This document shows positions 3,201-33,106 of a stretch of DNA of 61,708 nucleotides, piece by piece. The position numbers were made by a program, and so were the translations under genes. Origin of the DNA: a virus (Duplodnaviria; Caudoviricetes). The stretch is from positions 1 to 61,708 of the IMG/VR virus record IMGVR_UViG_3300047457_001340, one strand, 5' to 3'. The notes under the pieces are model-generated. The model made no database searches, was not told the origin of the DNA, and saw only the letters and a program-made list of their open reading frames with translations. The number at the start of each line of letters is the position of its first letter. Within the stretch, counting starts at the first letter, position 1.

Positions 3201-3399
3201 TTGCCGGGGTATTGTGCTCAGACTTTTGCCAACGCAAATCACTATTGTTGCTATCATCATACCAGTCAAACTCATGAGCCTTATGGCCGTATGCTCCTGT
3301 GAGGAGATTGACATACTCCTCTTTGGTGAGTCCATTTTTAATGTACTCATTGGCTGCCTCTTTATCATCTCCATTTAGGATTCCATGTACCTTAACCAC
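241..3399 (-). CDS. Large multidomain virion-associated protein (helical repeats, acidic middle, C-terminal 'R..E.QSD' domain)
   Basis: 1052-aa ORF; helical repeats (ALNHPDVS, LASSPHLS, LFNNEHID); C-terminal H..IGWARVD..WVVDEMQSD motif of a kind seen in large phage virion proteins; LAKA/LKKA at the C-terminus. Confidence 0.6.
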   Translation of the reverse strand: MVKVHGILNGDDKEAANEYIKNGLTKEEYVNLLTGAYGHKAHEFDWYDDSNNSDLRWQKSEHNTPANNKKIYEALRKKHSGSPGHDADKFLRLANVDDKLVDHVLNKTLDSDELMALVRNKSVTPDQLHKIIKHTHKAENVGEYSKRQILDEALNHPDVSQDSVGYLASQKNVPLDTQAKALAHEKNQDIDAILKHLDKGVPSNKYTLNGLLSKLPEDKRKEFIDKKLGIAGGKHVDADEEGFDPATASWGEDNYKSGEGYGYDYEKTLASSPHLSDEQAEHIKRHGTENAKLNLFNNEHIDPKHAVEMWHKWENDDQDDGYDLDNFKEHLKDEHRDSIIQDVYDSGEAREQAEEEYPFSEYVNDIGPIFGGRRSSRQAERHLDDYYDYLREKHDWKEENPNHDPSLERGMDALSEIKDDNGRITGKAFKDWKNSNKDEVANYLQREHRFDPEDDSDWVDYDAAKDEHDEKHNPKEIDYANHDEYSISDHPKFDDRFSDSQSDFVDSPEGEGLRDSLYDGYSESLSDRESEIADSRANDKMDELMHDYDYLPNHVRGKIDSINNKEARRLMSERERAHAEASDKEKKIAGFLNETIPNRQNEHEFGQDLHHLNMLKEHAEANGGSIGIDKMNRAYPDLKEAWKKHFNKPKLSAQDIQDKIDATPKKKYALSYDRWGSDSMQNSTGGDQVVFRLDHTPDSLKEIDADPALKNVFDRITETSKRSGHPVNFNTIGWARVDTSDPKTWVVDEMQSDLENKGIRPQLEAAEAAGQKVDAEKLAALDKINDMHGDWRANLFTAVINHAKKHGVERIITHSPESKANFLGEKNVHTVYKESYRKAPKQLGFTPQPGNTLPVPSKMTSAFLNREETSKTAEDHIEAMDAHLKRARAHKYLASRLKQSGQGDLFNGPASDDNSAEKHMDHYEHHMNMARQHQSRLTGYSAGGENLEERMGNIDINKLERNGEMESASNDIAGGKPFAHEKDALLQKPMSNKAVLPGHVLELKPEKIKERLAKAEEEFEKEQLSFYTMRLLKAQIKVERAKEILKKAKSIK

Positions 3400-4795
3400 G
3401 TTTTGTCATCTCCAGCATGATTCTGCGAACATATTTGGGGTCCATATTGTTTTCGCGGGCATACTTATCAGCAGCCTTGTAAACCTCACTCACCTGATCT
3501 CTGGACCTATCAATCCTCATTTGGCGTTCGTCCGTTGGGAATTCGTCTTGATCTTCTTGGGGGGCTTCTTGCTCTTGCGGTGCCTCTTCTTGTTGTTGTT
3601 CTTGTTCAGGGGCTTCCTGTTGAGGTTGGGCAGAGTCTTGCTCTGGAGCCTCTTGTCCTTGGGCGTAGGGGTCTTGGCCTTCTTTTAGGGCTTCTGTGTT
3701 CTGATTGGGCTCTCTTAATGCCACCTGCATCTTGGCGGAGTCGGTCGTGTCCTTGTCCTTTAGGCGCATCTCGATTTCTTGGTTGGTGGAGTCGTCATAG
3801 GTGACTACTTCGCCTTTACCCCTGAGCTTGCCTAAAGTTTTGGCACGGGTGGATTCACTGATCTTTTTGCCGATGCCAATGGTCGCGGTGACATTAGCTC
3901 TAGTGACATAATCTTCTTGTAGGTTTTGGATGAAATTAAGAGCTGTAGATGGGAGCTTGGCCATCATTTCGGTGCCATTGGCGGTGAGGATGGTGCCGCC
4001 CATTTGAATCACCCAAGCTTTAAAAGCCTCTTGGCCAGCATTAAGGCCTTCTGATCTGGCAATCAGCTTAGCCTCATCGTCTTGTAGGGCGGTGCGATCA
4101 AAGGTGTCAACGGAAGAGGTTTTTTCTAGGTCTGCCTCGGCAACATGATTTACAACATAGTCATGGTATTCATTTGGGGACATTGAGCCTACAATACCTG
4201 AGTAATGGTGAAGTCCCGCATATTTAAGAGTCTTAACTGCGATATGCTGCTTGTCTAGCTCACGGTCCTCAAGCGTATTCAGAACCCGCATCGCCTTCTT
4301 ATGGTCTGGGTGTTTAGAAACACTGATTTTTAGGTTACTTAAGCCATCTTCCGACTTAAAGTAGGCCTTGGTTTCCTTCTCTGCCTCGGTCTCCTTATTC
4401 TCTTCACTGAGCTTCTTGACCTGAGCTTCTACTTCTTCACTGTATTCGACAATCTTGTCTTTGCCGGTGAGCTTAGCACCAATCAGGGCCGTTTCACCGT
4501 GTCTCAGTGTGGTCCCAACGCCAACAGAGAGGGTGAAGCCTGTCTTTTTGGCATAGGCCGCCCTCAGCTCTTCAAGCTTTTTGGTTTCAATATCTTTGAA
4601 ATAGAATCTTGCTTCATCTCCGCCGTAGGAGATCATTTCGCCGCCATTGGCCTTAACCCAATCGGCAATGAGGGTTTCGCCCGCCTCAATGATGTTGGCG
4701 ACTTCCTTCACCTTGGCGGGGTCATCGGACATCACTGCCCTTCCAACTCTACTTCCAGCATTGTCTGCATCGACTGAGCAAAACTTCATAATCAC
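3392..4795 (-). CDS. Tandem mCpol/GGDEF-palm-like nucleotide cyclase protein
   Basis: SVDADNAG...GGEMISYGGDE...LSVGVG...AKLTGKD matches the minimal Cas10/GGDEF palm; degenerate second copy at about aa 226-345; Q/E-rich tail. Confidence 0.75.
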   Translation of the reverse strand: MIMKFCSVDADNAGSRVGRAVMSDDPAKVKEVANIIEAGETLIADWVKANGGEMISYGGDEARFYFKDIETKKLEELRAAYAKKTGFTLSVGVGTTLRHGETALIGAKLTGKDKIVEYSEEVEAQVKKLSEENKETEAEKETKAYFKSEDGLSNLKISVSKHPDHKKAMRVLNTLEDRELDKQHIAVKTLKYAGLHHYSGIVGSMSPNEYHDYVVNHVAEADLEKTSSVDTFDRTALQDDEAKLIARSEGLNAGQEAFKAWVIQMGGTILTANGTEMMAKLPSTALNFIQNLQEDYVTRANVTATIGIGKKISESTRAKTLGKLRGKGEVVTYDDSTNQEIEMRLKDKDTTDSAKMQVALREPNQNTEALKEGQDPYAQGQEAPEQDSAQPQQEAPEQEQQQEEAPQEQEAPQEDQDEFPTDERQMRIDRSRDQVSEVYKAADKYARENNMDPKYVRRIMLEMTKRG

Positions 4796-5215: not shown

Positions 5216-6958
5216 CTATCTCTTTTTAATAATCTGAGCGGCCTTGCGTTTGATATCAATGATGAAAGCTTCCCTGCTCTCATCATCCCACTTCTTGTCG
5301 AAGGAGAGTTTTAAACTCTTTTTTACCGAATCAAATTTCATCTGTGGTTTTGGGAGGCCTGTGTAGCAATCGCAAAAGATTTCGCCACTGCCACAATCTT
5401 GACAGTCACCTTGCTCCTCATCCATACTCTTAGCTAGGTCTCTGGATGAGATTGATACTTGGGCGCTTTTTTTGATCTCATTGAACTGTGGCAGCTGTTT
5501 AATCTTGCCAGACTTCAATGATTCGAGGGCGTGGTTTTTTAATGACTCAAGTTCCTCATTGAGATCTGAGTAGTCAATGTGTTCAGACAATCTGTTTTTG
5601 AGGTCCTTGATTTTGACGCCCAGTTCTTTTCTTTGCTTGCCTGCCTCTACTAAGTCATCTTTATGGGATGGGGACTCAAGCACATTGATAAGCCGTTTGT
5701 GCTCATTGGTAAACTCTTTCTCGTCCATTTTAATGGATTTACCCATAAATTCCTTAACCTTCCCGTGCTTGATGAAGTGCTCGGTGTCTGCTGAGACATT
5801 AGAGAAATCATCGCCACTTTCCCATCCGTCATGATGAACCATGAAAGATGTGTGGGGGTCGTAAATAGAGTCTTTAATCATGTTGCGAAGAGTTTTATTG
5901 GCGGGATGCTTGGGGTTGTTTAAAACACTCTCTGCCGCAGCAACCTCGTTACCGCCCGCAGATCCTACTTTGATATACCCTCTTTTCAATGCTTCAAATT
6001 CGTCACCCTCTTTATTGGCGATCCAGTCTTCATGGTATTCATTTGGCTTAAGGCGATTAAACTTTCCATCAGGAGAAATCCATCCATGGAAAGAGTCATT
6101 GCCTGAGCCATAGGTGTGCTTTTTGATGTCGTTTGTGGGCTTCAGCTGCTGAAGCGTTACTCTCATTGCTTCGGGAGGGGTGCCGTGAACATATACCATT
6201 TTGGTTTTGTGCTTATTTGCTTCATCAATGGCTTCGTTCAATTCTGCGTTGGTGGGGGAATGAAGATGCTTGCCGATCATGTGGACATGATCTTCGTGAG
6301 TGGCATGAAAAACATGAACACCCTTCATGGTGCCATAGTAGTGGGGATGTCTGTCGTCTGAGCGCTCCAGTGGCTCCGGGTTCACTGCAAGCTGAAACTT
6401 ATGGCCTGAGGGAAGGAGAGTGAAGTGGTTGTCGTAGTGGCCTCCGTGGGAAACGCCTACACCCGGCTCACTCTTTCTACCATCTCCAAACACAAAATGA
6501 TTTGTGAGATATGACGAATGAAGGACGGATGTTTGGTTATATTTGTTTCCAAGGGCTTCAAGCTTTTTCTTGTTCTCTTCAGAGCCGTCATGGGGCACCA
6601 TGTAGCCCTTTTCTTCGGTGTCATATTTGCCGTGAGTCTCAACTGGCTTCAGTCCATGGGCAATAATATCTTGTTTCAGCTGTCGATGAGCCTCTTCGTT
6701 GTGCTCTCCACCAGTCTTTTGCGCAGAAAGGCAGGTGAAATGGTCTGGTAAAACAAGATCTCCTTTGGGCTTCACTTCTCCCGACAGGTGCTTGTGATAG
6801 TGGTCTGGGAGTGGCCAGTGGTCGAGACCTTTAGGTGCGCCCGACTTATCCCAATAGTCGCTTACAGCTTTTGTTTTGGGATCAAAGTCTGGTGTTATAG
6901 TGGATTTGGACAGGGTCTTGTGTTCTTTGGCCATAAGGTAATTATCCACCGAAAACAC
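5216..6958 (-). CDS. Multidomain cargo protein: SAM-lyase-like domain, GWxxPxG domain, C-terminal Cys cluster
   Basis: LSA..N...L..GKY..EE...LGNKYNQTSVL; HGWISPDG domain; CQDC...CDC; linkers LSKS, LERS, MGKS, IKKS, LAKS. Confidence 0.65.
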   Translation of the reverse strand: MFSVDNYLMAKEHKTLSKSTITPDFDPKTKAVSDYWDKSGAPKGLDHWPLPDHYHKHLSGEVKPKGDLVLPDHFTCLSAQKTGGEHNEEAHRQLKQDIIAHGLKPVETHGKYDTEEKGYMVPHDGSEENKKKLEALGNKYNQTSVLHSSYLTNHFVFGDGRKSEPGVGVSHGGHYDNHFTLLPSGHKFQLAVNPEPLERSDDRHPHYYGTMKGVHVFHATHEDHVHMIGKHLHSPTNAELNEAIDEANKHKTKMVYVHGTPPEAMRVTLQQLKPTNDIKKHTYGSGNDSFHGWISPDGKFNRLKPNEYHEDWIANKEGDEFEALKRGYIKVGSAGGNEVAAAESVLNNPKHPANKTLRNMIKDSIYDPHTSFMVHHDGWESGDDFSNVSADTEHFIKHGKVKEFMGKSIKMDEKEFTNEHKRLINVLESPSHKDDLVEAGKQRKELGVKIKDLKNRLSEHIDYSDLNEELESLKNHALESLKSGKIKQLPQFNEIKKSAQVSISSRDLAKSMDEEQGDCQDCGSGEIFCDCYTGLPKPQMKFDSVKKSLKLSFDKKWDDESREAFIIDIKRKAAQIIKKR

Positions 6959-6981: not shown

Positions 6982-7794
6982 TTAAACAGAGCCATCTTTA
7001 GGCTCTGGTCTGTCGGAAGGACCCACCTTGTCGTAGGGGTCGTGTGGAATGAAGTCCTTTCGAACAACTGCCAACTGAGGGAAGCGCTGTTGAATAGAAT
7101 TTCCATCTTTATCAAGGGTTTGCGTAGCCCTAATCTGATGGGGCAGGCCTATGACGGTGAAAACTGGTCTGGTGTAATAGTTGACCGAATAGATAATCCC
7201 ATTACCTGTGACAGGGTCATATCCGGGCCTTTCTCCAACCCACTCTAAGTACCCTTTTTCATTAATAATTACATCGACCCCAACCCGATACTGGACGCCA
7301 TAGGCATCCATAATGAAGTCAATACTTTTAGCTGGAAAGTGGAGCTTGTCGATTCCTGTCTGACTATGCTCTACAAGCTGATAGTAGCGAACCGTGTAGT
7401 CTGGCACCAAGATCTGATCAAAAAACTGAACATCAAGCTCCGTACCGTCATCGTAGGTAGAGGGAAGGACAATCGTGGCCTGATCGATGTCATAAGAACC
7501 ATTCATCACGAATTGGCGCTGATTACTATTGCCCTGAAAGGCTCCAATAAAAGCCCGCTCGCCGTAGTAGATAAAGCCGTTGTGGCAATCGGTACATCCG
7601 GGATCATGGTCCCCATCATGAATACTTAAGCGCCTCGGACATGGCACAGGTCTTGAATGCACCATGCGAATGCCCTTACTTTTAATCAGCTCATTGAAGG
7701 AATCTGGGTTCATTCCTGCCTGAGGCTGGCCACTGGGCTGCTGACCAAGGAGCTTGGATGGGAGCTTAATGTTTGGAATTTTTGGCTGCGACAT
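6982..7794 (-). CDS. Head-tail connector/neck protein (SPO1/Twort-like)
   Basis: PCP...H...CxxC.NG N-terminal motif typical of this neck protein family; structural gene context. Confidence 0.6.
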   Translation of the reverse strand: MSQPKIPNIKLPSKLLGQQPSGQPQAGMNPDSFNELIKSKGIRMVHSRPVPCPRRLSIHDGDHDPGCTDCHNGFIYYGERAFIGAFQGNSNQRQFVMNGSYDIDQATIVLPSTYDDGTELDVQFFDQILVPDYTVRYYQLVEHSQTGIDKLHFPAKSIDFIMDAYGVQYRVGVDVIINEKGYLEWVGERPGYDPVTGNGIIYSVNYYTRPVFTVIGLPHQIRATQTLDKDGNSIQQRFPQLAVVRKDFIPHDPYDKVGPSDRPEPKDGSV

Positions 7795-8263
7795 TTCTCA
7801 TGGCCTTCAGGTGCTTATCGAACCTTTTAACATAGTTGTGGTTGACTATTTCTGTTTCAGAAACCTTATTCACTTTATTTGGTCCAAATAACCAGCTATA
7901 AGCAGCTCTCTTGGGTCCAAACTTCTTTCTCAGAGTGCTCCAGTAGTACATCGCAATCTCCCTATCCATCTTTCGATTATGATTGAGGAGCTTTGTGATG
8001 GCCGAATTAGAGAGAGGTAGGATGTTTCCGTACTTCTTTCTTAGGTCCTTTGATCTTAGAACCAAGTCTCTGGCAGTGATTGGCATCAGACCATACCACC
8101 CACCAGCCCTAGTTCCCTTGTGCATCCCACCCTCAATCACTCTATGATTCAGGAAGATACCGCCCTTAGTTTCAACAAGGGCAATTGAGTTCAATTCGTT
8201 GTCAAATGATGCGAAAGCTAGTTGCGAAAAAAATAATGTTAAAACAATACAAGCATTAGTCAT
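7766..8263 (-). CDS. Secreted lytic transglycosylase/lysozyme-like protein
   Basis: Signal peptide (...LAFA); IALVET (catalytic Glu), GWYGLMP, AAYSW, YV motifs of the SLT fold. Confidence 0.7.
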   Translation of the reverse strand: MTNACIVLTLFFSQLAFASFDNELNSIALVETKGGIFLNHRVIEGGMHKGTRAGGWYGLMPITARDLVLRSKDLRKKYGNILPLSNSAITKLLNHNRKMDREIAMYYWSTLRKKFGPKRAAYSWLFGPNKVNKVSETEIVNHNYVKRFDKHLKAMRNVAAKNSKH

Positions 8264-9086
8264 TCAGGTTAGATTTGATCTTCCTGATATGCTCGATTAC
8301 CCTCTTCCCTTTCTCAATACGGGTATTCGACTCCGACTTATGGAGTTTCACTTGATGTGGCTCCACATACGCAACATCGTTGGTGCCACCCACTTGCACC
8401 TTGATTTTATTGGGTACATTTGGGTTGGTTGGGCGAACTATGGCCAACTTGTTGTGTAGCGCAGTTCCATGCGCGTCGATTCTTACCGTACTGCCGGGGA
8501 TATGCTGCTTGGCGATATGCGGCTGTGCGGTGAGAGCTTGGTTTGAACCTGATTTTTCTTTTAAATTTGGATTGGACATCTTCACTCTGGTTGTGAAAAC
8601 AAACTCGCCACTCTTTTTGTCAGTGGCATAGTGATAGTGGTCCATGTCCTTGTCTTGAAATGCGTGGGTAGCCTTAATTTGGTCGTGAGGAGGTAGCTCG
8701 GAGTAGTGCTTGTAATCGTATTTGGGGTTCAACCCCGCTGGCTTATCTTGGGGATAACTCACTGCCTTTTCAAAGGACTCGCCCTTATTTAGCTTTCTTT
8801 GTCTGGACAATACTCGATTATATACATGATTGGCGCGGTCAAAATAAGGCTTGACGCTTGGGTGGAAATCTGCGGCCTCACTGTGCTTTCCTTCAGAAAT
8901 TAACTGCTTTACGTGGTCTTCGGAGTGTTTCTGTGCCTTACTAATCAGAGCCCTGGCGTGGTGAACTCTTCCAATTCTCAAAGCATCGAAAGCCTGAGCT
9001 AAGCGGTGAAAAATATTCTGATAATGGCTTCTGTTTTCTACGCCATCGTCTCCAAAAAATGGTGATGCAGACTTATTTTTACTCAT
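8256..9086 (-). CDS. Probable virion cargo protein with C-terminal SH3/KOW-like region
   Basis: 276-aa His-rich ORF; linkers LNKGESFEKA and LHKS...IEKG; PGSTVRI...KVQVG beta-rich segment. Confidence 0.5.
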   Translation of the reverse strand: MSKNKSASPFFGDDGVENRSHYQNIFHRLAQAFDALRIGRVHHARALISKAQKHSEDHVKQLISEGKHSEAADFHPSVKPYFDRANHVYNRVLSRQRKLNKGESFEKAVSYPQDKPAGLNPKYDYKHYSELPPHDQIKATHAFQDKDMDHYHYATDKKSGEFVFTTRVKMSNPNLKEKSGSNQALTAQPHIAKQHIPGSTVRIDAHGTALHNKLAIVRPTNPNVPNKIKVQVGGTNDVAYVEPHQVKLHKSESNTRIEKGKRVIEHIRKIKSNLND

Positions 9087-9540: not shown

Positions 9541-10365
9541 TTAAAACGCCGTGAATTGAAGGTCCGTTCCGTAGTGGGCCTTCAACTGCATCGTGAGCTT
9601 ATCTCTCTCTGCTGTTAGCTCCTGAAGCCTTTGAGAAAGCCACTGAGGTCCTGCATTGCCAGTGCTTTGAGAAAGGCCGTCGATACCTACGCCAAACGAG
9701 TTAATGGGGAAAATGGCGGGCCCCATCTGTGAAAGAACAGCAATGGCGGCCATAACGCCAATGCAATGATTAACAATGTGTGGAATCTTATCGTTCTCAA
9801 ATCCTGCAACATAAGTGATGCGCCAGACATTGGGCCACATCTGCTGCCCACCCAGTGCCAATGCGCGGCCAGTGATGGAGAAAACAAAGTTGGCATCGGC
9901 GTTATTGATGGAGCCTGAGGTGGGGACAATGCGGATTAGGCCATTATCTTCTTGGGTGGTAACCCAATCGGTGGGGTAGGAGTATTCCTGTCCTTCCGCT
10001 CTTCCCGGCCAGAGGGCCTCAAGCTTCTCTACCTTCAGAAGAGGCCAGCGTGCCAGCCTGTGCGGAGAAAACTCCATGTCATCTGGACGCTTGAAGTCAA
10101 ACTTCTCTACATTTCTAACTGGGCTTACTGGGATTCTGATGGAAGATTCAAATTCAGACACTGCAGTGAGAATGAAATCCTGCAAGTCTTCGTCATCAAG
10201 CTCGTCATCTGTCATTGCTGCCTTGAGCGGCACTCCAAACAGATACTTCTTCTTGAACTTCTTTGGGCTCAGAAGCGGTCCCACTCTTGTGAAGCTGGGG
10301 TCTCCATTGCCTTGGTTTAGGGGTGTTGGCTGCCCAATCACTGGGCTGTCCTTTGAATCTGCCAT
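9541..10365 (-). CDS. Head completion/adaptor protein (SPO1/Twort-like)
   Basis: YLFG, ITYVAGF..IP and GIDGLSQS motifs. Confidence 0.65.
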   Translation of the reverse strand: MADSKDSPVIGQPTPLNQGNGDPSFTRVGPLLSPKKFKKKYLFGVPLKAAMTDDELDDEDLQDFILTAVSEFESSIRIPVSPVRNVEKFDFKRPDDMEFSPHRLARWPLLKVEKLEALWPGRAEGQEYSYPTDWVTTQEDNGLIRIVPTSGSINNADANFVFSITGRALALGGQQMWPNVWRITYVAGFENDKIPHIVNHCIGVMAAIAVLSQMGPAIFPINSFGVGIDGLSQSTGNAGPQWLSQRLQELTAERDKLTMQLKAHYGTDLQFTAF

Positions 10366-11047
10366 ACCTATATTGTACTAGCAAACCCTTAGGGCCATAA
10401 TTGGCCTTAAGCCAATTTTCGGCCTCTTTACAAGTAGATGTGGGGTGCTCTTGGAAGTAGCGGATGGCAACTCCACCCATTCGGGCTGCGCTGAATGAGG
10501 TGCCTCCTGCATCTTTGGGCGACCTTTCTAGGTAGGTGTCGCCAGCGTTGGCTATGGGGTCCTTGTTGCCCTTAATGGTTGTAGATACAGAGACAAGGCA
10601 GGGCAGGTCATACTTGGCTGGGAATCCGGGCTCGTCTAGGCCCTCATTTCCAGCTGCCACCACCACGAGTATGCCGCTGGAGGTGGCTCTTTTGATTGCA
10701 GAAAACTCAGCAATATCGGGTTTTTGTCCATTAAGGGAGAGGGATATAACTTTGGGTTTTTTGTCAGTAGCCTCTTCAATTGCCTTGGGAAGGTCCGAGA
10801 TATTATGCCAAATAACTTGCTCAGCCCTCACTGGCTTGACATCCTCAATGCTGAGTTGGTCATCGAGGGATTGGGCGACCTGTGTCCCATGGACATTCCA
10901 GCAGGCCTCTGGCCTATTGATGGGCATGTTCAAATAGCCAGTGTGTGACTTGGTGTTTCCCGTATCAACCTGAATGATTTCTATACCGTCAGCTAGGGCT
11001 GAGGTAGATAAAGACAGTGCTATTATGTATTTGACCCAATTGCTCAT
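10205..11047 (-). CDS. Secreted subtilisin-like (S8) serine protease
   Basis: Signal peptide; triad motifs VDTG, HGTQVA, GTSFSA and oxyanion AAGNEG; 3' end overlaps the next gene. Confidence 0.85.
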   Translation of the reverse strand: MSNWVKYIIALSLSTSALADGIEIIQVDTGNTKSHTGYLNMPINRPEACWNVHGTQVAQSLDDQLSIEDVKPVRAEQVIWHNISDLPKAIEEATDKKPKVISLSLNGQKPDIAEFSAIKRATSSGILVVVAAGNEGLDEPGFPAKYDLPCLVSVSTTIKGNKDPIANAGDTYLERSPKDAGGTSFSAARMGGVAIRYFQEHPTSTCKEAENWLKANYGPKGLLVQYRYGRFKGQPSDWAANTPKPRQWRPQLHKSGTASEPKEVQEEVSVWSAAQGSNDR

Positions 11048-11084
11048 GTACAATTGTACGCAAGTGGGCTAGTAGGCGATAGGA

Positions 11085-12092: not shown

Positions 12093-13580
12093 TTAGACGC
12101 GATAAGCGTATTTTGCTCTGATAACATCGCCCGCAGCGAGGGCTTCTTCTCCTGCTGGGAGCAGAGCGCCTGCGACAACCGAAACGGTATAATCAGCGGT
12201 TTGGTGGATAGCAAGGCGATCAACATACATGTTGAGAGACAGTGCTTCAACTTCGTGGCCGAGGTCGATGTAGCCGTTGGAGATATCTCCAGATGTGATC
12301 GTGAACACTTCTTGATTGAACAAGAAATGATCGGCTTCGAGGGAGGTGATGCGGCCATCGAGACCCCCTTCAGCTGACGTTGCGCGGGCAACTTCAACTG
12401 CCAAATTAGCGGTGAGAACGCCTTCAGCATTTTCAGCGCGGCTAACTTCAGCTGCGAGATCAGCGGTCAATACGCCTTCAGCTGCCGTAGCGCGGCTAAC
12501 TTCAGCTGCCAAATTAGCAGTGAGGACGCCTTCAGCTGCCGTAGCGCGGCTAACTTCGTCAATGACAGACTGAGCGAGAGAAGCTTCGGCTGCTTGAGCG
12601 CGGGCAACTTCAGTTGCGATCTGACCATTGAGATTATTATACGCTGCCGCATCGTCAATTTGATTCTGAAGCTCAGCTGCTTGAGCGCGGCTGATTTCAT
12701 CAGCAATAGACTGGGCAAGAGAAGCTTCAGCTGCTTGAGCGCGACTGATTTCTGCAGACAATGCTGCGGAGTTGCCAGAAGCCAAGGAGCTGATAGCACC
12801 CTGCAAGCTGCCATCAGCTGCTTGGAATGCTGCAACAATCTCGGTGAGAGAGTTGAGGGCTATTGGGTCGGAATTGCTAACAATGAAGCTAATCTGCGAC
12901 TGGAGCGATGCTTCAGCTGCGGTAGCGCGAGACACTTCGGCAGAAAACTGATCAAAGTTAACAGAGTCGCCAGAAGAATCGCCAACTGCGAGGTTGGTGA
13001 TCTTGCGGACATTCATGTTGAGGTCTGCTCCAGAGATGGATAGGAGGATGTCGTCCGCCACGTTCTCCATCTTGAATTCAACGGTTTGTCCCGTGTTGTC
13101 ATTGTACATTCCAATGACATTCTTATGGATACCATTGGTGTCATCGGCGTAGCTATGCATATAGCTTTCCCACATGCCGTCGGCGCTATAGGAATTGAGC
13201 ACTGCCGATAAGTCCGAAAGGACGTGGTTAGCCAAATGACCACTCCAGCCCTGAATATCGCCAACAACAACCATACTTCCGTTTGCGGTGACGGTGTGGT
13301 CTAAACCACTAACTGCTAAGTATGCAGGATTTGATCCCGGAATACTCGGATTGGCTTTACCGATAAGGGTGACGGTCTCGCCCTCAACGTCGGTTCTGCT
13401 GTACTCATTTTTGATCATAAGGGTGTCGGTGTTTCCGACGCCATCTGTACCAAGCATGATTAAGTCTTTAACGGTAACATTGTCAATAGACTTAGCTTTG
13501 AACGCATCATTGTTCAGCATCAAAATCTTTGAGCCGTCAATGGCAGCGTCCATTATATGTTTCTTTTTAATCTGTTGCAT
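12093..13580 (-). CDS. Fibre/decoration protein with coiled-coil repeats
   Basis: RKITNLAVG..DSVNFDQ fibre motif; multiple EVSRATAAE-type repeats. Confidence 0.7.
   Translation of the reverse strand: MQQIKKKHIMDAAIDGSKILMLNNDAFKAKSIDNVTVKDLIMLGTDGVGNTDTLMIKNEYSRTDVEGETVTLIGKANPSIPGSNPAYLAVSGLDHTVTANGSMVVVGDIQGWSGHLANHVLSDLSAVLNSYSADGMWESYMHSYADDTNGIHKNVIGMYNDNTGQTVEFKMENVADDILLSISGADLNMNVRKITNLAVGDSSGDSVNFDQFSAEVSRATAAEASLQSQISFIVSNSDPIALNSLTEIVAAFQAADGSLQGAISSLASGNSAALSAEISRAQAAEASLAQSIADEISRAQAAELQNQIDDAAAYNNLNGQIATEVARAQAAEASLAQSVIDEVSRATAAEGVLTANLAAEVSRATAAEGVLTADLAAEVSRAENAEGVLTANLAVEVARATSAEGGLDGRITSLEADHFLFNQEVFTITSGDISNGYIDLGHEVEALSLNMYVDRLAIHQTADYTVSVVAGALLPAGEEALAAGDVIRAKYAYRV
12370..12760 (-). 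repeat. 54-bp (18-aa) coding tandem repeats
   Basis: TTCAGCTGCCGTAGCGCGGCTAACTTC recurs at a 54-nt period; encodes EVSRATAAEGVLTANLAA-like units. Confidence 0.85.
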
Positions 13581-15369: not shown

Positions 15370-15789
15370 TTAGGGATTAAAGAACCTGTTGCCAGACCTT
15401 GGGGCAAAGATTTGAAAATGCACCCAGTTGGGCGTAGCACTAAAGCTCTCGCACCAAAGGCCCGCCTGCTCAAGTGTGGACACATTCGCCAAACACCAAG
15501 CCTGAAGCTCTTGGTTGGGGTCGGAGATATCCAAAGCCGCACCCTTTAAGTGCTGCGATTTCATAGGCACCTTAGATTCATCGAATGGGACTCCAGCCTT
15601 CTCAGCTTTTTCCCTATAGATTCTCAGGTGATCGGCCATGGTTCTCAGACCTGAAGTCACGGTCATTGGCTTGCCGTAGGCCTCCCTGATCTTATTCACC
15701 TTGGCAATGAGGATTGCTAGGTTTGCCCTCACATCCTCGGGCTGATCTTCAAGCTTTGCGCCTTTTAAAACTTCCTTGAGGGTAATCAT
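15370..15789 (-). CDS. Peptidase M15-family endolysin
   Basis: VTSGLR, SQHLKGAALD (H-x6-D) and WVH zinc ligands. Confidence 0.85.
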   Translation of the reverse strand: MITLKEVLKGAKLEDQPEDVRANLAILIAKVNKIREAYGKPMTVTSGLRTMADHLRIYREKAEKAGVPFDESKVPMKSQHLKGAALDISDPNQELQAWCLANVSTLEQAGLWCESFSATPNWVHFQIFAPRSGNRFFNP

Positions 15790-18764
15790 TGTTTAAACTT
15801 TCCGTGTTTAGCAAAGTGATCAACACTCACCCCCACATGAGACTCGGATGGAGTATGGGTGTCGCCATAGTGGTAGATGTCGCCGTTCATAGTTTGACCG
15901 GGATAAGCATCGCCAAAAATCTGACGAAGCTTCAGGGTGGCTGGGTGCCTCTTATTTGCGATAATGGGGTGAGCAGCGCTAAAGCTTGCGTCTCCGCCGT
16001 GGCCAACAGCAATCCAGCCAGAGTCAAGAGCCGCTGTGGCATTCTCTCCGGTTTTTTCGGCAATCCAATCCATGTGAGACTCATTGGGCTTCATTGGGTG
16101 AAAGTCACCCTCTGGAGATACCCAACCGTGAAGCTTTCCAGATTTACCATCGAAGATGTGCTTATTAAGCTTATTAGTAATTTCTTGAGCCTTTTTTAGC
16201 TTAGATGGGATGCTCTCATCAAACCAGTCTGCCGGGTTTTCTTTAGGAGCTTCTTTCTTGCCGCCCTCAATCACTTTGATTTGTGATTGAACCTTTTTGT
16301 CAGCTTTCTTCTGCTGAAGGCGCTTTAATTGAGCCTCACCCTCTTCTTGGGAAATCTCCACGCCCGTATCTGGGTTATGCCAATTATTGTCGGCAAAACG
16401 CTCCAGCTGAGATTGGGTCATGTTCTTGTGGGGAGACTTGACCTTTTCAAGCTCCTCGCTCTTGTTCATTTGTCCGCTGAGCTTGTTAAACTTCTGAACA
16501 TAGGGGTGGGAGTCGATCTGTTCTTGGGTCGCATTCTTGGCGGCTGTAATGCCATTGCGCCAAGCGTAGGCCATTCTAGGCTTATCGCCACCAAACACAT
16601 GATGTAGCCTGTCCCAGTGGTGATTAGCTATGTCCGCCTCGATGCTGGGGTTATTATTGAGGTGTTGCGTGATCTGGTCACTGGACATGGAAAGGATGTT
16701 TGAGTGTCTCTCCATGAGCTTTGGGTTTTTCTTAATAGCCTCTTTCACCGTAATGGGCATAAGTCCAGTAGAGCCTGCTGCTGTATCTCCAGCATTCAGG
16801 CCTACGGTCGTCTTCTGATGCTTCTTATTTTTTCCGTCAGACGACTCAATAGAGGCAATGTGCCTGAGACTGCCTTTTAGCTCTACCTTGGGGGACACAC
16901 GGGCGGGAACCACGCCTGCACTGGGTGAGGTTGGGGTGGCCATGGCGGTGGCAGATAAGATGGCTAGACCCGCTGCAGCATCCTTCAATGCCCCCTTATC
17001 TAGCTCACTCTTGTCTATATTGGCACTCTTGATCTTGCCGTATTTGGCAAATGTATTGGTGTCGGCTTCATGGAATTGCCAATTATCACCCTGCTCCGGC
17101 TTAATAGTGACACCAAAGGTGGGGCCCCAATGTTTGTGAGCAAGCTCCCTCAGCTTTAGGGTTGCTGGGTGCCTTCTGTTGCCAATAACAGCGTGGTGGC
17201 CAGAAGCCTCTTCCATTCCGGCATGGCCAACCGATATCCACCCCTGATCATAAGCATCCGAAATGGAGCTGATACCATGGCCATTGCGTATAACATCCAA
17301 ATGGTCCTCATGGGGCTGCATGTGGATGTAATCGCCTTCCGGCGTAATCCACCCATGAACCTTGGCGGGAGTGCCTAAGTGGTAATCAACTTTGTCTAGC
17401 GATTCGGGTTTGACCGCCTGCCTTCTGGCAAGCTCCGTCTTTTTATGCTCTATCTCTTTGGGGTCCACGAAATATGAGCGCGGCGGTTTTGAATACTCTT
17501 CAATCTGATCGGCCAACATGGTGGTTGGAGTAGAGGCTGTGTAATCTTTAATTCCATGTTTCTCATATAGGTTTCTAAGATGTATTTTAAGGTCCTGATT
17601 ATCAAATAAATCCAGAGTAGATGAGGCGCGGCTTCTTTTAGCAAATCCGCCCATATCCATGATTTTGAGTTCGCCCTTTGCATTTCTTCCTAATTGAATG
17701 TTATCAATGGGTTTATGCCCGGCAACAAATGCATCATGAAGGCTTTCTCTGACATGAGCAAGCTCGTGCTCGTTTAATTCTCCGTCTTTAATGGGGGTGA
17801 GAGATTCTCTAGCCAGATAAAGCTTATCCCCTTTTCTCCAAGTCCCGTGATGTTTGGGAGTGAGGGGATTTCCTGCCATGCCGGTGATGGCATCGTGCTC
17901 ACTCATGATGTCTCCGCGAGCTTCAGCCGGGGTTTTCTTGGGATTAAACTTGTTATATGGGGTAGTTTTGGAAACCTTTACAACTACATCTGGGGTGGCC
18001 TGATAAACATGGCCCTGATGTCCACTTCCTAAGTATTTCCAATCGTGAGTCTGAAATAATGGAGTTCCCCAATCAGCGCCTTTCTCAAGCTCTTCGGACT
18101 TGCCGAATTTGCGGTTGGGCTGGTTCCAGAAAGCCTCGCCATCTGGCTCCTGTATATCAGAGCGGATTATCTTTAACCCGCTTTTCTTCTCGGCTAACAC
18201 ATACATAGCCGATCCAAGCCCCTTCCGTTGATGCTCTTCGTCTACCCACACGGAGAAATTGCCAGTACCATCTATGGGGTGTAGCGCAGAGCCCTTTTCT
18301 CTAAAAAGAGCCTCTCCGACCTCATTGCCATTTGAGTCATGGGCTGATAGGCTGTGTATTTTCTTTCCTTCTCCTGAATCATCCTTCCAAGAGCGGTAGT
18401 AAATTTTATACCCCTCCTTCTTCCAATCCCCATTCTTGCCCTTGTCGAGGTCCTCGGCCTTATTCAAAAGGCCTGAGGCCTTCATGGACTCAACGACTTG
18501 GTCCATCACCTCTTTGGTAGGCTCAGCTCCCATAGCCTGCATGACAGCCTTAAAGCGGTCAGCCTTATTTGGAATCTGAGAGACCTGCTGAACCAGCTCA
18601 GGTGGGAGCTTCTCTGCTTTAGGGTCTAAGATCTGAACTAGGGCTGAGACCTGAGAAAACGTAGCGGGGTCCTCAAGGTCCGATTCCTTGAGGTTTGCGG
18701 CTAGGTTTATAAGCAGTTCTACAAGCTCGTTTTGGGGGATGGGCATGTCCCTATTATCCCCCAA
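15786..18764 (-). CDS. Polyprotein: GNAT + kinase-like + GWxxPxG + SLT + small domain + GWxxPxG
   Basis: VDEEHQRKGLGSAMY; YLGSGHQGHVY/VVVK/IMDMG; IASIES/GLMP; domains separated by KSEELEK-type linkers. Confidence 0.8.
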   Translation of the reverse strand: MGDNRDMPIPQNELVELLINLAANLKESDLEDPATFSQVSALVQILDPKAEKLPPELVQQVSQIPNKADRFKAVMQAMGAEPTKEVMDQVVESMKASGLLNKAEDLDKGKNGDWKKEGYKIYYRSWKDDSGEGKKIHSLSAHDSNGNEVGEALFREKGSALHPIDGTGNFSVWVDEEHQRKGLGSAMYVLAEKKSGLKIIRSDIQEPDGEAFWNQPNRKFGKSEELEKGADWGTPLFQTHDWKYLGSGHQGHVYQATPDVVVKVSKTTPYNKFNPKKTPAEARGDIMSEHDAITGMAGNPLTPKHHGTWRKGDKLYLARESLTPIKDGELNEHELAHVRESLHDAFVAGHKPIDNIQLGRNAKGELKIMDMGGFAKRSRASSTLDLFDNQDLKIHLRNLYEKHGIKDYTASTPTTMLADQIEEYSKPPRSYFVDPKEIEHKKTELARRQAVKPESLDKVDYHLGTPAKVHGWITPEGDYIHMQPHEDHLDVIRNGHGISSISDAYDQGWISVGHAGMEEASGHHAVIGNRRHPATLKLRELAHKHWGPTFGVTIKPEQGDNWQFHEADTNTFAKYGKIKSANIDKSELDKGALKDAAAGLAILSATAMATPTSPSAGVVPARVSPKVELKGSLRHIASIESSDGKNKKHQKTTVGLNAGDTAAGSTGLMPITVKEAIKKNPKLMERHSNILSMSSDQITQHLNNNPSIEADIANHHWDRLHHVFGGDKPRMAYAWRNGITAAKNATQEQIDSHPYVQKFNKLSGQMNKSEELEKVKSPHKNMTQSQLERFADNNWHNPDTGVEISQEEGEAQLKRLQQKKADKKVQSQIKVIEGGKKEAPKENPADWFDESIPSKLKKAQEITNKLNKHIFDGKSGKLHGWVSPEGDFHPMKPNESHMDWIAEKTGENATAALDSGWIAVGHGGDASFSAAHPIIANKRHPATLKLRQIFGDAYPGQTMNGDIYHYGDTHTPSESHVGVSVDHFAKHGKFKQ

Positions 18765-23075: not shown

Positions 23076-25661
23076 TTAACCCGAAGCCTGAGCAGGCTCC
23101 TCCTCCTTATCGTCTACCCGGCCTGCTGGACCCATCTCAAGATCTGAGAGTTCCATCTGCTGTGGCTCTCCACGGGGGCCGGGAAACTGTGTATAAACAA
23201 TACAACGATTGTAGTCGGTGACACATTCAACAGCCACTGGACAGCGGCCATTTCGCACCTTGTCTAACAAGAAGACGATTCTGTTTTTCTTGGCATCATC
23301 CTCGGAGCGGTTAATCGTGATGACATTGGAGGCCTTCCTGACAATCCCAAAGCTTTCAGCCACATCGGACATCCTGAGGTAGTCGGTGCCTTTTTTAGAG
23401 AGCTGGTGTCCAAGACGGTTCACTTGAGCCCCACCAGCACCTGCCACATTCAGCTCTAAACAAAGCTGCTTCAGCTCTGAATAGACAAACTCTTGAAGGA
23501 GTCGGGTGTTGTCGAGGGACTTGAATCTTGAGGTGGTCAAGCATTGGCCGTAATCACACAAGAAAAGCTCGAAGGGCCACTCTTTATGGAGCATTCTAGC
23601 CGCCTGCTGCACCTGCTCCACGGTAGCTTCGTGGCTGTACATGTACCTGATCTTAACGTTCTCTTTTAGAAGCTCGTCGGCAATCTTTAGGGCTTCCTTC
23701 TCGTCTTGATTGAGCAGGGTGTATGGGGCCATAAGCTTGGTGAAGGGGACGCCGCTGAAGCGGGATAGGAACCTCAGTTTGGTGGGAAGCTCTTCGTCCT
23801 CATGGACGGTTAGAAACACCTTTTTGCCTGCATTGACTGCAAAGTAGGCCAGATTGGGCATGAGCATGCTGTTGTGTGTTAAGATACCGTTGGCAACGAA
23901 AAGGTTGTCTCCGTCTACCGATAGGTCAAATGTTTCTTGTTCTCCGACATATTCAATTGAAACAACCTCATCTCTATGAAATGAATCGTCAAAATTAAGC
24001 CCATCAGATTCCGCTGTATTGGCAAGAATCCTCCACAAACCTGAGTTGGGGCGCTTTTTTTGGAGCTTTTTCTTTGTTTCAGATGGCAGCAGGTTAGAGG
24101 CTTCGTCGGAGTAATACACCCACTCCCCACCAAGCTTAGAATTTTCTCTACCCACAGCTTTTTCAAGACGACCGTCGCCCCATTTATCCGTCAAACTAAG
24201 TTCTTTTATAAGCCTTCTTGATGACCTTCCGGTTACAAAGATTGAATATACCCCATAGTTTTCCAATGTTCTGTTTTTAAGTTTGACTGTTTTGTGCGAT
24301 GATTTAACATTGGACACATATCCAAGACGCAATAACACTTGTTGAAGGTATCGAACTTGGTGTTCATAATGAAGCGATAAAACTACAGACGACCCCCTCT
24401 TATCCACTGTTCCATCTGCATCCATAATACCAGCAATATAAGCTGCTGCAGATTCCTTGGACCAAGATAAAACATCAATCAAACATTTGTTTTCTTTGGT
24501 TCCTGTCCTAAGACCAAACGCTTCTAGCTGATCTGCAATAAAAGCATTAGCCCAAATAGACTCGCCATTATCGCCCTTTTTGTGCGTTCTTGGATTGTTG
24601 AGTCCCATATTTCCAAGAACTCTTAATAACTTATTTTTCACCGAACTATCTTTATGAATAGCCCAACTGAGATATCGAGTGTTGAAACTATTTTTAAAGT
24701 AGCTGCCGTCGCCAAAAGTAAATCCCAATAACCAAGCGATGTCATTGGGTATTTTTTTTGTTCCAATCCAGTTATCAATGGGAACAACTACAGGATCTCC
24801 AACGCTAATGTCCCTAAGTTGTTTTTGCTCTATTCCATCTCCGCTATCCAGCGCGTGTATGTGATCAAGTGTTGAATCAATATACAGGCCACTGCTGAGT
24901 GTCATACGGTAAAGTGGTTTAATGCCATTTCTATGAACAGCAAGAATCTTTCTTTTCGCGTTGTAGCCAACAACATAATTATGTTGAGATAGCGTTATAT
25001 CCTTAATTTTAACCAAACCCTTATCAGTAGGGACCAACGAATCCCCGCCTAAGCATTTTCCCGTATTCGACCCCCCAAGAAAAGTGGTCCAAGTCTGCGG
25101 GAAAAGTCCGCCGTTCATGGCGGCATCGATTGCGGCAATGCCCGTTGGGATTGCATTTTGAGCCTGAGCAGAGGCCAAATCGATCATGGAGACATGGTCC
25201 CCGAAGGAGGCGACCTTTTCCTTCTCAAAGTCTACCTTGGAGATGAGGTCGAGGTGTTTCTTGGTGATTTCATAAGCATGCTCCCGGTTGCCTGAGTTGT
25301 AGAGTGGGGCTGCCTCTTTGTAGGCTAAGATAAAGAGGCTTGCTCGAATGAAGCCCGTCAGCTCTTTTTTAAGGTAGTTCTCATCCGGTTCACTCTCTTG
25401 GATCTTCTTAAACTCGGCATAATACTTGGAGGCGTCCGTTGCTCCTTGTTTATTGATCTCGTTGGAGAGTGCCGATCGGGTAGGAAGGCTGTTGTGCTCT
25501 GTGTATAAGTCCTTAAATTTACGAAAGAACCACCGCAGCTCTTGAGAGAAGTAGCCCTCTTCTAAGTAGGCCACGCACCGGGCGGCAAAGCGTTCGTCCT
25601 GTAACATCTGCTTAATAACCTGACGCTGGAAGTCTAGACCAAATTTTTCATTGCCGCTCAT
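23076..25661 (-). CDS. DnaB-like replicative helicase with intein
   Basis: IPTGI..ID...GG, Walker A GGSNTGK|S, CDY, AQVNR, AES, KVRNG. Confidence 0.92.
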   Translation of the reverse strand: MSGNEKFGLDFQRQVIKQMLQDERFAARCVAYLEEGYFSQELRWFFRKFKDLYTEHNSLPTRSALSNEINKQGATDASKYYAEFKKIQESEPDENYLKKELTGFIRASLFILAYKEAAPLYNSGNREHAYEITKKHLDLISKVDFEKEKVASFGDHVSMIDLASAQAQNAIPTGIAAIDAAMNGGLFPQTWTTFLGGSNTGKCLGGDSLVPTDKGLVKIKDITLSQHNYVVGYNAKRKILAVHRNGIKPLYRMTLSSGLYIDSTLDHIHALDSGDGIEQKQLRDISVGDPVVVPIDNWIGTKKIPNDIAWLLGFTFGDGSYFKNSFNTRYLSWAIHKDSSVKNKLLRVLGNMGLNNPRTHKKGDNGESIWANAFIADQLEAFGLRTGTKENKCLIDVLSWSKESAAAYIAGIMDADGTVDKRGSSVVLSLHYEHQVRYLQQVLLRLGYVSNVKSSHKTVKLKNRTLENYGVYSIFVTGRSSRRLIKELSLTDKWGDGRLEKAVGRENSKLGGEWVYYSDEASNLLPSETKKKLQKKRPNSGLWRILANTAESDGLNFDDSFHRDEVVSIEYVGEQETFDLSVDGDNLFVANGILTHNSMLMPNLAYFAVNAGKKVFLTVHEDEELPTKLRFLSRFSGVPFTKLMAPYTLLNQDEKEALKIADELLKENVKIRYMYSHEATVEQVQQAARMLHKEWPFELFLCDYGQCLTTSRFKSLDNTRLLQEFVYSELKQLCLELNVAGAGGAQVNRLGHQLSKKGTDYLRMSDVAESFGIVRKASNVITINRSEDDAKKNRIVFLLDKVRNGRCPVAVECVTDYNRCIVYTQFPGPRGEPQQMELSDLEMGPAGRVDDKEEEPAQASG
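23871..25055 (-). mobile_element. Intein with LAGLIDADG endonuclease in the helicase Walker A
   Basis: CLGGDS...GILTHN|S; LLGFTFGDG and IAGIMDADG; AT-richer than the flanks. Confidence 0.93.
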
Positions 25662-32392: not shown

Positions 32393-33106
32393 TTACCCAA
32401 TTAAAGCCTTGATAGTAGCCATGTCCTGTTCGGTAGCACGGTTAGTTTCAAAGCGAGTAATCAGGGCAGTTTCCACTGGCTTCCCCGATTTTTTAAGATT
32501 CAAAAGCTTGTCAATCACTTCAGCCTTATTGAGCGACTGGCCTTCTTCCGACTTGCGGAGAGGGGTTAGGCCAGATACGCCCTTGCGGGGCATCGGTGCA
32601 TTGGCAATCTTTTCGATTTTTTCGTTCAGTGCTGCAACGGTCTTAGAAAGGGATTCAATCGACTCACCGAAGGACTTCTTCAGAGCTTCCACTTCTTCGT
32701 TAGTCTTGATTTCTTCTTTCTTAACTTCTTGAGCCTGTTCAGACTTCAAGAGACCGCGACTTTCCATTTGAGACTTCAAGGCTTCAAATTCGGACTTCAG
32801 AGCGTCATCGCTCATTTCTTCCTCTTCTTCTTCCTTGTCGTCTTCCTTCTTATCCTTCTTTTCGTCTTCTTCTTCAGCAGCTTCTTCAGCAGCAGGCTCA
32901 GCAGCTTCATGAGCGGCTGGTTCTGCAGCTTCGTCTTCCTGAGCTTCTTCAGCTTCGGGAGATGCGGCCAAAGGACGAGAAGGATCTTCAGCGTACTGGA
33001 AGTCGTCCATCTTAGACAACTCTTCGTACTCTCTCAGAGCTTCATCCAGCACCTGTTCGATGCTCTTCAGAAGCTCTTCCTTGCTCTGTTTGGTTTCCTT
33101 AGCCAT
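32393..33106 (-). CDS. Scaffolding protein
   Basis: Acidic coiled coil upstream of the capsid gene; many LxKS/KT/KA sites; P.PRK motif. Confidence 0.75.
   Translation of the reverse strand: MAKETKQSKEELLKSIEQVLDEALREYEELSKMDDFQYAEDPSRPLAASPEAEEAQEDEAAEPAAHEAAEPAAEEAAEEEDEKKDKKEDDKEEEEEEMSDDALKSEFEALKSQMESRGLLKSEQAQEVKKEEIKTNEEVEALKKSFGESIESLSKTVAALNEKIEKIANAPMPRKGVSGLTPLRKSEEGQSLNKAEVIDKLLNLKKSGKPVETALITRFETNRATEQDMATIKALIG

Follow-up and report, generated by a model that had tools for sequence, protein, structure and literature searches.

A lysine-bearing linker motif common to head-assembly proteins separates the modules of a polyvalent phage protein

The polyprotein gene

The stretch of DNA analysed here (61,708 nucleotides; hereafter the window) covers positions 1 to 61,708 of IMG/VR virus record IMGVR_UViG_3300047457_001340 (Duplodnaviria; Caudoviricetes), a 61.7-kb contig that is viral by gene content, with portal, capsid, terminase and related genes present, and that CheckV estimates to be 37% complete. 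Its minus strand carries, at 15786..18764, the gene of a multi-module protein, a putative 'polyvalent' precursor termed the polyprotein below, in which every module boundary bears a short hydrophobic-x-Lys motif that is also concentrated in the head-assembly proteins of the same contig. The open reading frame (ORF) is open over 992 codons from a TTG, with its stop at 15786-15788. An alternative ATG start at residue 7 (nt 18746), with AGGGA upstream, is as plausible as the TTG and gives a protein of 986 amino acids (aa), as in the identical database copy P0004, which starts at the same ATG. The ORF is real, and the stereotyped-linker architecture that a sequence-only reading of this DNA had proposed for it is confirmed. 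No match to the gene was found by megablast among 50,697 phage records, no PHROGs family could be assigned to the protein, and phmmer with the whole polyprotein against PDB sequences returned chance-level matches only.

Modules and their folds

AlphaFold2 was run on two halves of the protein (residues 1-460 and 461-992) with sparse homolog alignments. The first half was modelled with a mean predicted local distance difference test score (pLDDT) of 79.6 and a predicted template modelling score (pTM) of 0.55, with pLDDT below 50 at residues 1-5, 102-112, 214-231 and 455-460. The second half reached a mean pLDDT of 70.9 and a pTM of 0.40, with a core at residues 625-770 at pLDDT 96-98; confidence was low over 549-613, 835-852 and 866-875. 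The endpoints of homolog alignments cluster around residues 99-110, 224-231, 577-592 and 759-779, which locates boundaries independently of the motif. As modelled, the modules are real and separate, since low pTM stands beside high local confidence and since the modules are shuffled in homologs. Seven were mapped, of five kinds (a helical leader, GNAT, kinase-like, SLT-type lytic transglycosylase and two GW copies) plus a small helical module, all on the minus strand. The beads-on-a-string arrangement and the module names of the sequence-only reading were thus borne out by fold matches, low pLDDT at most linkers and alignment endpoints.

The leader (aa 1-99, 18468..18764) comprises six predicted helices, is acidic (isoelectric point 4.5) and ends in G-L-L-N-K-A; AlphaFold2 placed helices over residues 11-96 at pLDDT 65-89. 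It is a putative capsid-targeting propeptide. It matched no other protein of the window, so the idea that it might be shared among them was dropped. The GNAT module that follows (aa 110-219, 18108..18437; pLDDT 70-91) has a Q-R-K-G-L-G acetyl-CoA-type motif at 179. Its own Pfam match (PF13508, E 0.0033, 18.2 bits against a cut-off of 27) lies below threshold, while homologous copies that are 38-47% identical to it pass Pfam, for instance that of P0022 (PF00583, E 4e-24).

The protein-kinase-like module (aa 230-452, 17409..18077) contains GSGHQG as the G-loop at 246, VVKVSK at 261, PIDNIQ at 352 and MDMGG at 369. It gave no Pfam match, the Asn of the canonical HRDxxxxN is not conserved, and the best match among PDB sequences (E 0.39) was a Legionella effector. 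When the model was compared with the PDB by Foldseek, 171 matches at E<=1e-3 were obtained, the best being 4o0t_A at 4.6e-5, and all 43 among the matches listed for ranks 1-50 were kinases or kinase-like domains. Small atypical kinases came top in VIA (Rio2 with Z 12.9, root-mean-square deviation (rmsd) 4.1 and 171 aligned residues; Rio1 with Z 11.8), and the ESM Atlas gave TM values of 0.61-0.65 to Pkinase. The Gly-rich loop, the VVKV lysine, the PIDNIQ Asp and the D-M-G motif are kept in the homologs P0075 and P0104, and P0084 (122 aa) spans and keeps the N-lobe motifs only (G-loop and beta-3 Lys). In a search for short stand-alone kinase homologs, none of 312 candidates scored. The structural matches support a protein-kinase-like, C-lobe-poor fold for aa 230-452, with kinase activity as a prediction.

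The SLT module (16470..16991) consists of a hydrophobic segment at aa ~592-612, which sits directly after linker 4, and a fold at aa ~624-774. The latter contains E640-S641, GLMPIT at 667 and AYAWRNG at 732, which we take to be the catalytic Glu-Ser, the GLMQ-like and the AYNxG-like motifs of lytic transglycosylases. VIA matched the module to MltC (Z 12.4, rmsd 2.4, 122 aligned), MltE (Z 10.9), Slt70 (Z 10.6) and phiKZ gp144 (Z 9.6), and Foldseek ranks 1-21 were all lytic transglycosylases, at a best E of only 0.033. By sequence profile no Pfam match was obtained, and the profile of the C-terminal half found no lytic transglycosylase among PDB sequences, the best match being unrelated (E 0.42). 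An SLT fold at aa ~624-774 is supported by the modelled structure. A stand-alone SLT paralog is encoded at 7766..8263 and has a signal-like N-terminus in place of the hydrophobic stretch.

The two GW domains, copy a (aa 460-582, 17019..17387) and copy b (aa 870-992, 15789..16157), are paralogs (independent E 1e-21) and have a 44-nt DNA repeat of 75% identity in common. HGW[IV]SP.G, GW[IV]SVGH and HPA are conserved in copy a, which was modelled at moderate confidence. The ESM Atlas yielded no usable feature match for the GW domain, its structural neighbours lying at TM <0.5 and without family, and the structure-match lists obtained for residues 461-992 (VIA, Foldseek) were filled by the SLT module. 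The small helical module (aa 776-855, 16200..16439) was modelled as helices at pLDDT 61-85. No embedded processing peptidase appeared among the Pfam or PHROGs matches of the polyprotein, in which the GW and small-module folds lack a named match.

Stereotyped linkers between the modules

Hydrophobic-x-Lys motifs were found at all six module boundaries, as the sequence-only reading had listed them, and five of the six are doubled. Linker 1 (aa 100-109, 18438..18467, minus strand as for the other five) reads LNK(102)-AEDLDK(108)-G, a double motif with pLDDT below 50 at 102-112, and linker 2 (aa 220-229, 18078..18107) reads FGK(222)-SEELEK(228)-G, likewise double, with pLDDT below 50 at 214-231. 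The string of linker 2 is also found between tandem GNATs in many homologs. Linker 3 (aa 453-459, 17388..17408), PESLDK(458)-V, is the single one, with pLDDT below 50 at 455-467, and linker 4 (aa 583-591, 16992..17018), the double IDK(585)-SELDK(590)-G, lies within a stretch of pLDDT below 50 that spans 549-613. Linker 5 (aa 766-775, 16440..16469), the double MNK(768)-SEELEK(774)-V, was modelled as the end of a helix and is not disordered in the AlphaFold model, its 10-residue block means being 89 and 69. Linker 6 (aa 856-869, 16158..16199), LKK(858)-AQEITNKLNK(868)-H, is the weakest match, with pLDDT below 50 at 866-875. At most junctions two sites are spaced 5-10 residues apart, and eight of the 11 putative P1 lysines fall in segments of pLDDT below 50, which make up 203 of the 992 residues (binomial P 3e-4).

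The motif is confined to the junctions to a striking degree. All seven matches to L[DENQ]K[GVHAS] in the polyprotein lie within the six linkers and none inside modules. Relative to shuffled sequences, L[DENSAQK]K[GVAST] was observed 7 times against 1.1 expected, and [LIVMF]xK[SA]E 4 times against 0.3. The linkers of this gene are encoded by differing synonymous codons, and no DNA repeat joining them was found within the gene, from which it follows that selection probably acts on the linker peptide.

The motif in the head module

The head module of the window comprises a portal, a head-maturation protease, a scaffold-like protein and a major capsid protein, all on the minus strand, together with a 141-aa ORF. 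The portal (42092..44083) carries a perfect double unit, D-L-S-K-S-E-E-D-L-S-K-A, at aa 24-35 and a second double at ~aa 600-616. The protease (33561..34304) is SPO1 gp3.2-like (phrog_1028; BLASTP against SPO1 gp3.2, E 1e-13) and has 2 motif instances against 0.2 expected, including LIK-SE after the catalytic core. The acidic scaffold-like protein (32393..33106) contains 3 core motifs and 2 double motifs, and ends LRK-SEEGQSLNK-AE. In total, [LIVMF]xK[SA]E occurs 17 times in the 57 ORFs of the window (18,607 aa), and 11 of these instances fall in the polyprotein, scaffold, protease and portal, which together make up 2,139 aa (binomial P 3e-7). The concentration persists when the polyprotein is excluded: scaffold, protease and portal, which account for 1,147 of the remaining 17,615 aa, hold 7 of 13 instances (P 6e-6).

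The major capsid protein (30898..32364) bears the motif at its N-terminus, Q-A-E-E-L-A-K27-T28-L-Q-A-G-H. Its alignment to SPO1 gp6.1 (32% identity, E 6e-71) starts at L25-A-K27|T, where SPO1 has L-N-K|A. In a Staphylococcus relative, the 439-aa PDB chain 9row_B (also 9rox and 9roz) starts just after E-D-V-V-K24 of the 463-aa chain 5lii_P, at the aligned position, and the location of the scissile bond was derived from these chain lengths. The pattern extends to related phages. The SPO1 scaffold has 11 instances of hydrophobic-x-K-[SA] against 1.1 expected, and the SPO1 protease and portal are also enriched. The portal, scaffold and a 1479-aa polyprotein of Myxococcus phage Mx1 are enriched as well, and so is L006, a relative found via the capsid protein, which keeps Q-A-E-E-L-x-K|T-L-Q at the capsid N-terminus. 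L006 gave no match to the polyprotein; its record is 28% complete.

Because the motif is common to head proteins, the capsid boundary and relatives, hydrophobic-x-Lys followed by a small residue is probably the recognition unit of this family of head proteases, and the double linkers are, on sequence grounds, read as two tandem protease sites. Cleavage after Glu (K-S-E|, as in T4 or phiKZ) was considered as well and was dropped because the capsid boundary and the L-x-K-G half-sites have no Glu there. No published report was found of a junction motif that also marks portal, scaffold, head protease and capsid N-terminus.

Homologs and module shuffling

A HMMER scan found 1294 homologs at E<=1e-3, of which the best 150 (149 non-identical proteins and P0004) were analysed by mapping the seven query segments. 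Variable domain content, which the sequence-only reading had anticipated, was evident among these best 149 of 1294, where proteins of 122-2470 aa combine these modules in many different orders and with differing numbers of copies. GNAT is present in 1-4 copies per protein and GW in up to 5, and SLT stands at the start, in the middle or at the end. Of the 149, 12 have GW, 3 have the kinase and 6 (P0015, P0017, P0021, P0062, P0095 and P0100) have the small module. None of the 149 has the full architecture of the query, as judged by inspection of the listing by eye; the identical P0004 does. The four largest homologs also hold NUDIX and S-AdoMet-lyase-like domains. Tunturi_5 gp203 is a small NUDIX and GNAT protein.

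The leader had been expected to be conserved, and this did not hold, since it is present in only 8 of the 149 homologs, always at residues 1-96, as one of several N-terminal families. The N-termini of 118 proteins of at least 400 aa (117 homologs and the query) fall into at least nine clusters of at least five members, with sizes that include 15, 9, 8, 8, 7, 6, 5 and 5, and 33 singletons. One of these families starts with NUDIX, and in another a short peptide leads straight into [ED]-L-[DE]-K-G and SLT. In 8 of the 9 leader-bearing proteins, the G-L at the end of the leader is followed by hydrophobic-x-K or hydrophobic-hydrophobic-K.

The junction motif, on the other hand, is conserved in homologs, as the sequence-only reading had predicted. 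LEKG and FGKSE were observed 78 and 48 times, where 4.5 and 0.3 were expected, and per 1000 aa the core motif occurs 2.37 times outside the mapped cores of modules and 0.72 times within them. Of 279 K[ST]E instances, 68% have F, L, I or V at position -2, 28% have L at +4 and 30% have K at +6. Two GW copies of the query and 17 of homologs were aligned, and in 17 of these 19 L-x-K or I-x-K, mostly as [ED]-L-x-K, stands shortly before HGW; the remaining two are truncated there or are without the hydrophobic residue. In 28 of the 149 homologs (e.g. P0021, P0022 and P0095) the linker comes in a second flavour, K-L-A-A-S-E-x(1-6)-L-x-K-[GAST], up to 4 times per protein and spaced 180-560 residues apart, which is absent from the polyprotein of the window.

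Relation to known phage systems

In the part of the text consulted, Iyer et al. 2017 (PMC5512222) describe polyvalent proteins of phages and conjugative elements as single polypeptides of unrelated enzymatic domains, two to fifteen distinct ones each, with highly variable architectures, for which delivery with the DNA was proposed. The repertoire given in those sections includes GNATs, protein kinases without the C-terminal subdomain, cell-wall enzymes and NUDIX, the kinase-bearing forms coming mainly from (pro)phages of Verrucomicrobia-Chlamydia and Bacteroidetes, and stand-alone module copies nearby are likened to cassettes. Processing by embedded zincin-like or C-terminal assemblin-like peptidases was proposed there, a peptidase that is frequent among such proteins without being required, and the paper nowhere uses the word 'linker'. 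A later survey of jumbo phages refers to polyvalent proteins three times and gives no cleavage sites for them, and none of the papers listed in a literature search on virion maturation-protease cleavage uses the term 'polyvalent protein'. The protein described here falls within the definition of a polyvalent protein, as it is multi-domain, has a combinatorial architecture and draws its domains from the conflict repertoire of protein-modifying, cell-wall and nucleotide-targeting enzymes; its packaging is suggested by the motif and by the position of the Mx1 homolog. It differs from those described in that every junction has a short motif common to head-assembly proteins and that the Pfam scan detected no embedded peptidase. 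The polyvalent class was already known; what appears to be new is a head-protein motif between folded enzymes, with Lys as the apparent P1 residue.

Cleavage of internal head proteins has precedents. The internal proteins and Alt of T4 carry propeptides that are removed by a protease, the T4 motif being L/I-x-E. In SPN3US, as described in the part of PMC10052503 consulted, internal head proteins have N-terminal propeptides of 20-254 residues that are removed by the prohead protease at A-x-E, with several cuts. The polyprotein would resemble the SPN3US and phiKZ substrates in its prohead-targeting propeptide, its fixed short cut motif and its several cuts per substrate, and portal and protease are trimmed there too. 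Unlike in SPN3US and T4, where a propeptide is taken off one mature protein and P1 is Glu, the sites here separate five or six folded modules, with Lys as the presumed P1. SPO1 (Herelleviridae-type) has a homologous capsid protein and protease (32-34% identity) in the same protease-scaffold-capsid order, with the motif enriched, whereas a polyvalent cargo protein did not appear within the 13-kb region of SPO1 examined. T7 gp16 is a virion-internal SLT lytic transglycosylase that is ejected before the DNA, and it gave a weak fold match (6yt5_G, Z 5.8, rmsd 2.8, 92 aligned); it differs in being a single large ejectosome protein, not cut from a polyprotein.

A parallel in a cultured phage is offered by Mx1, which, like the phage of the window, has an estimated genome size of ~165 kb. 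Its protein WNM70333 (annotated 'NUDIX hydrolase', 1479 aa) has the SLT-like module in common with the polyprotein (34% identity, E 2e-12), with a hydrophobic segment before it. A linker of the form K-S-E-D-L-D-K-V is present, as are further hydrophobic-x-K-S-E sites (3 observed, 0.2 expected). The WNM70333 gene lies in the structural region, between the capsid and tail-sheath genes and beside a kinase gene. The protein differs in having GNAT-like, NUDIX and ParB-like regions, as judged by eye, and in being without the leader. A neighbouring Mx1 'putative prohead protease' (L008, 5003..8722, 1239 aa) has an N-terminal SPO1-like protease domain followed by ~900 aa without named modules. One of its segments, A-M-E-A-G-N-F-N-A-.-P-S-T-L, is almost a copy of the sequence just behind the predicted cleavage site at the N-terminus of the capsid protein of Mx1.

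A possible processing mechanism and its alternatives

Taken together, the polyprotein is probably a capsid-targeted precursor that is cut after Lys by the head-maturation protease, as the pattern of the motif suggests. The acidic helical leader (aa 1-102) would serve as the propeptide by which the precursor enters the prohead during assembly, where the SPO1-type protease (33561..34304) would cut after the Lys of hydrophobic-x-Lys at every module junction. This would free the leader (~11 kDa), the GNAT acetyltransferase (~13 kDa), the Rio-like, C-lobe-poor kinase (~26 kDa), two GW fragments (~14 kDa each), the SLT (~19 kDa) with a newly exposed hydrophobic N-terminus and the small helical module (~10 kDa), and acidic peptides of 5-10 residues such as SEELEK would also be released. 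The freed enzymes would then exit the capsid with the DNA into the host, where the SLT might open the peptidoglycan while the GNAT and the kinase might modify host proteins; packaging, cleavage, the scissile bond and the enzyme targets are all proposed here on indirect grounds. What was observed directly is the modular architecture with its folds, the placement of the motif and its presence in head-assembly proteins as well, the reshuffling of modules among homologs, and a head module homologous to that of SPO1.

Several observations weigh against this precursor model. The polyprotein gene is ~12 kb away from the head genes and lies between M15 peptidase and tail-fibre-like genes to one side and SbcC and ThyX genes to the other. 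At the second half-sites P1' is G, V or H, compared with S, A or T in head proteins, and K768, K774 and K858 were modelled within helices at fair confidence. With strict patterns, a site was found in only 37 of 68 short inter-module junctions of homologs, and in 1 of 7 GNAT-to-SLT junctions; looser forms (FGKGE, FGKTE, LKKG) were seen at homolog junctions and were left out of the strict count. The motif in part coincides with the conserved ends of GNAT, QPNRPFGKSE at the C-terminus and KG..GDW at the N-terminus, and a smaller, distant GNAT relative, found in L007, is without such a linker and sits with genes for replication. The start of the 439-aa PDB chain may reflect the depositors' entry, not a measured mature N-terminus, and a published cleavage site of SPO1/Twort-like head proteases was not found in the searchable literature.

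An intact multi-domain polyvalent protein that works uncut, either packaged or in the cytoplasm, is one alternative, the motif then being a charged, flexible or helix-capping connector that is in part GNAT's conserved termini, copied with module duplication. The N4 virion RNA polymerase is an example of a protein that is packaged unprocessed. Such an explanation would accommodate the helical model of linker 5, the presence of QPNRPFGKSE and KG..GDW on the GNAT ends in most copies and the fact that 38 of the 68 short junctions examined are GNAT-GNAT, and some polyvalent proteins are described as delivered unprocessed in the part of the 2017 survey consulted (PMC5512222). It is nevertheless considered unlikely, given that the motif also flanks the leader, kinase, GW, SLT and small modules, that it is concentrated in portal, scaffold and protease, all of which are unrelated to GNAT, that it coincides with the maturation boundary of the capsid protein, and that the linkers differ in their synonymous codons.

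Cleavage of the linkers by another protease (of the ClpP family, an S8 subtilase or one of the host), or after ejection rather than in the prohead, seems less probable still. The window does encode a ClpP-family protein (38224..38799, minus strand, E 9e-37) and an S8 subtilase (10205..11053, minus strand, E 3e-11), its two further proteases, and processing after injection is considered in the sections of Iyer et al. consulted (PMC5512222). The motif, however, tracks the substrates of SPO1-type head proteases in SPO1, Mx1, L006 and this phage, and no ClpP or S8 gene is found between the SPO1 portal and capsid genes. The N-terminus of the subtilase, moreover, looks signal-like from its sequence, which suggests action outside the cytoplasm.

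The cassette format of the sequence-only reading, in which domains are shuffled together with their linkers, was upheld as regards the shuffling and not as regards the joint travel of linkers, which are kept as peptide and not as DNA. In its bare form, with the linkers as neutral passengers or recombination joints of mobile domains without a biochemical role, it would be consistent with the extensive variation in module order and copy number and with the stand-alone module genes in the window at 7766..8263 and inside 5216..6958. It is hardly credible as the whole explanation, since the linkers lack DNA-level similarity to each other, the peptide motif is kept across homologs whose modules are only 35-55% identical, and the motif is present in head proteins that are not shuffled. 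As head proteins and the capsid boundary carry the motif, selection for a protease site at each junction would explain it better than passive cassette travel.

If the favoured precursor model is extended beyond this contig, a large set of mostly uncultured SPO1/Mx1-like phages might, tentatively, make their injected effectors as true polyproteins with a removable capsid-targeting leader and interchangeable modules, each flanked by one or two head-protease sites. A module dropped between two sites would therefore be packaged, freed and delivered automatically, a plug-and-play format that would explain the extreme shuffling. For tailed phages it would be the first such strategy to be described, polyproteins having so far been associated with RNA viruses. 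The acidic hexapeptides excised from the double sites would arise as a by-product, perhaps with a role as internal counter-ions. Head-protease cleavage at the linkers would also provide a simple processing rule for polyvalent proteins, a matter that was left open in the 2017 survey and attributed there to embedded peptidases. It would define the specificity of SPO1/Twort-type head proteases and suggest a general route for loading foreign proteins into such capsids. For metagenomic phages it would supply a sequence signature of packaged effectors, with the mCpol, S-AdoMet-lyase-like/GW, 276-aa and 1052-aa neighbours described below as examples. The linker rule is simple, widespread and directly testable in Mx1. 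Should the linkers be uncut, the protein would still add a clean new case to the polyvalent proteins, one whose connector is unusually regular.

Other genes of the window

Several further minus-strand genes are of note. In a cargo-like block, 3392..4795 encodes a protein of 467 aa whose N-terminal domain is mCpol (minimal CRISPR polymerase; Pfam E 4.5e-22) and which by eye bears the single motifs F-K-S-E-D-G-L-S-N-L-K and L-E-K-T; an Mx1 'nucleotide cyclase' lies in an equivalent neighbourhood. The 580-aa product of 5216..6958 combines an S-AdoMet-lyase/DUF3293-like region at aa 79-160, at the Pfam threshold, with a third GW copy (E 3e-23), and may be a packaged anti-restriction enzyme. Neither motif scan matched this protein, in which a loose M-G-K-S was seen by eye only. 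Three double hydrophobic-x-K motifs are present in the 276-aa product of 8256..9086 and one, near the C-terminus, in the 1052-aa product of 241..3399. Both of these ORFs are without a family match and may encode further protease-processed head proteins.

Insertions that look like inteins were observed in three large genes. The DNA polymerase (54192..58562, 1456 aa) has a LAGLIDADG homing-endonuclease match at aa 214-390. In the large terminase (45640..48792, 1050 aa), terminase matches are limited to aa 805-1019, and its aa 78-330 match the same two PHROG families as aa 172-469 of a DnaB-like helicase (23076..25661). A relative of 'DNA transfer protein' with a metallophosphoesterase region is encoded at 35584..37164 (phrog_1745, E 3e-93), a family that is presumably T5 A1-like, and L006 has one too. 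Finally, the 495-aa tail-fibre-like protein at 12093..13580 contains many tandem repeats of A-E-V-S-R-A-x-A-A-E-G-V-L-T-A-x-L.

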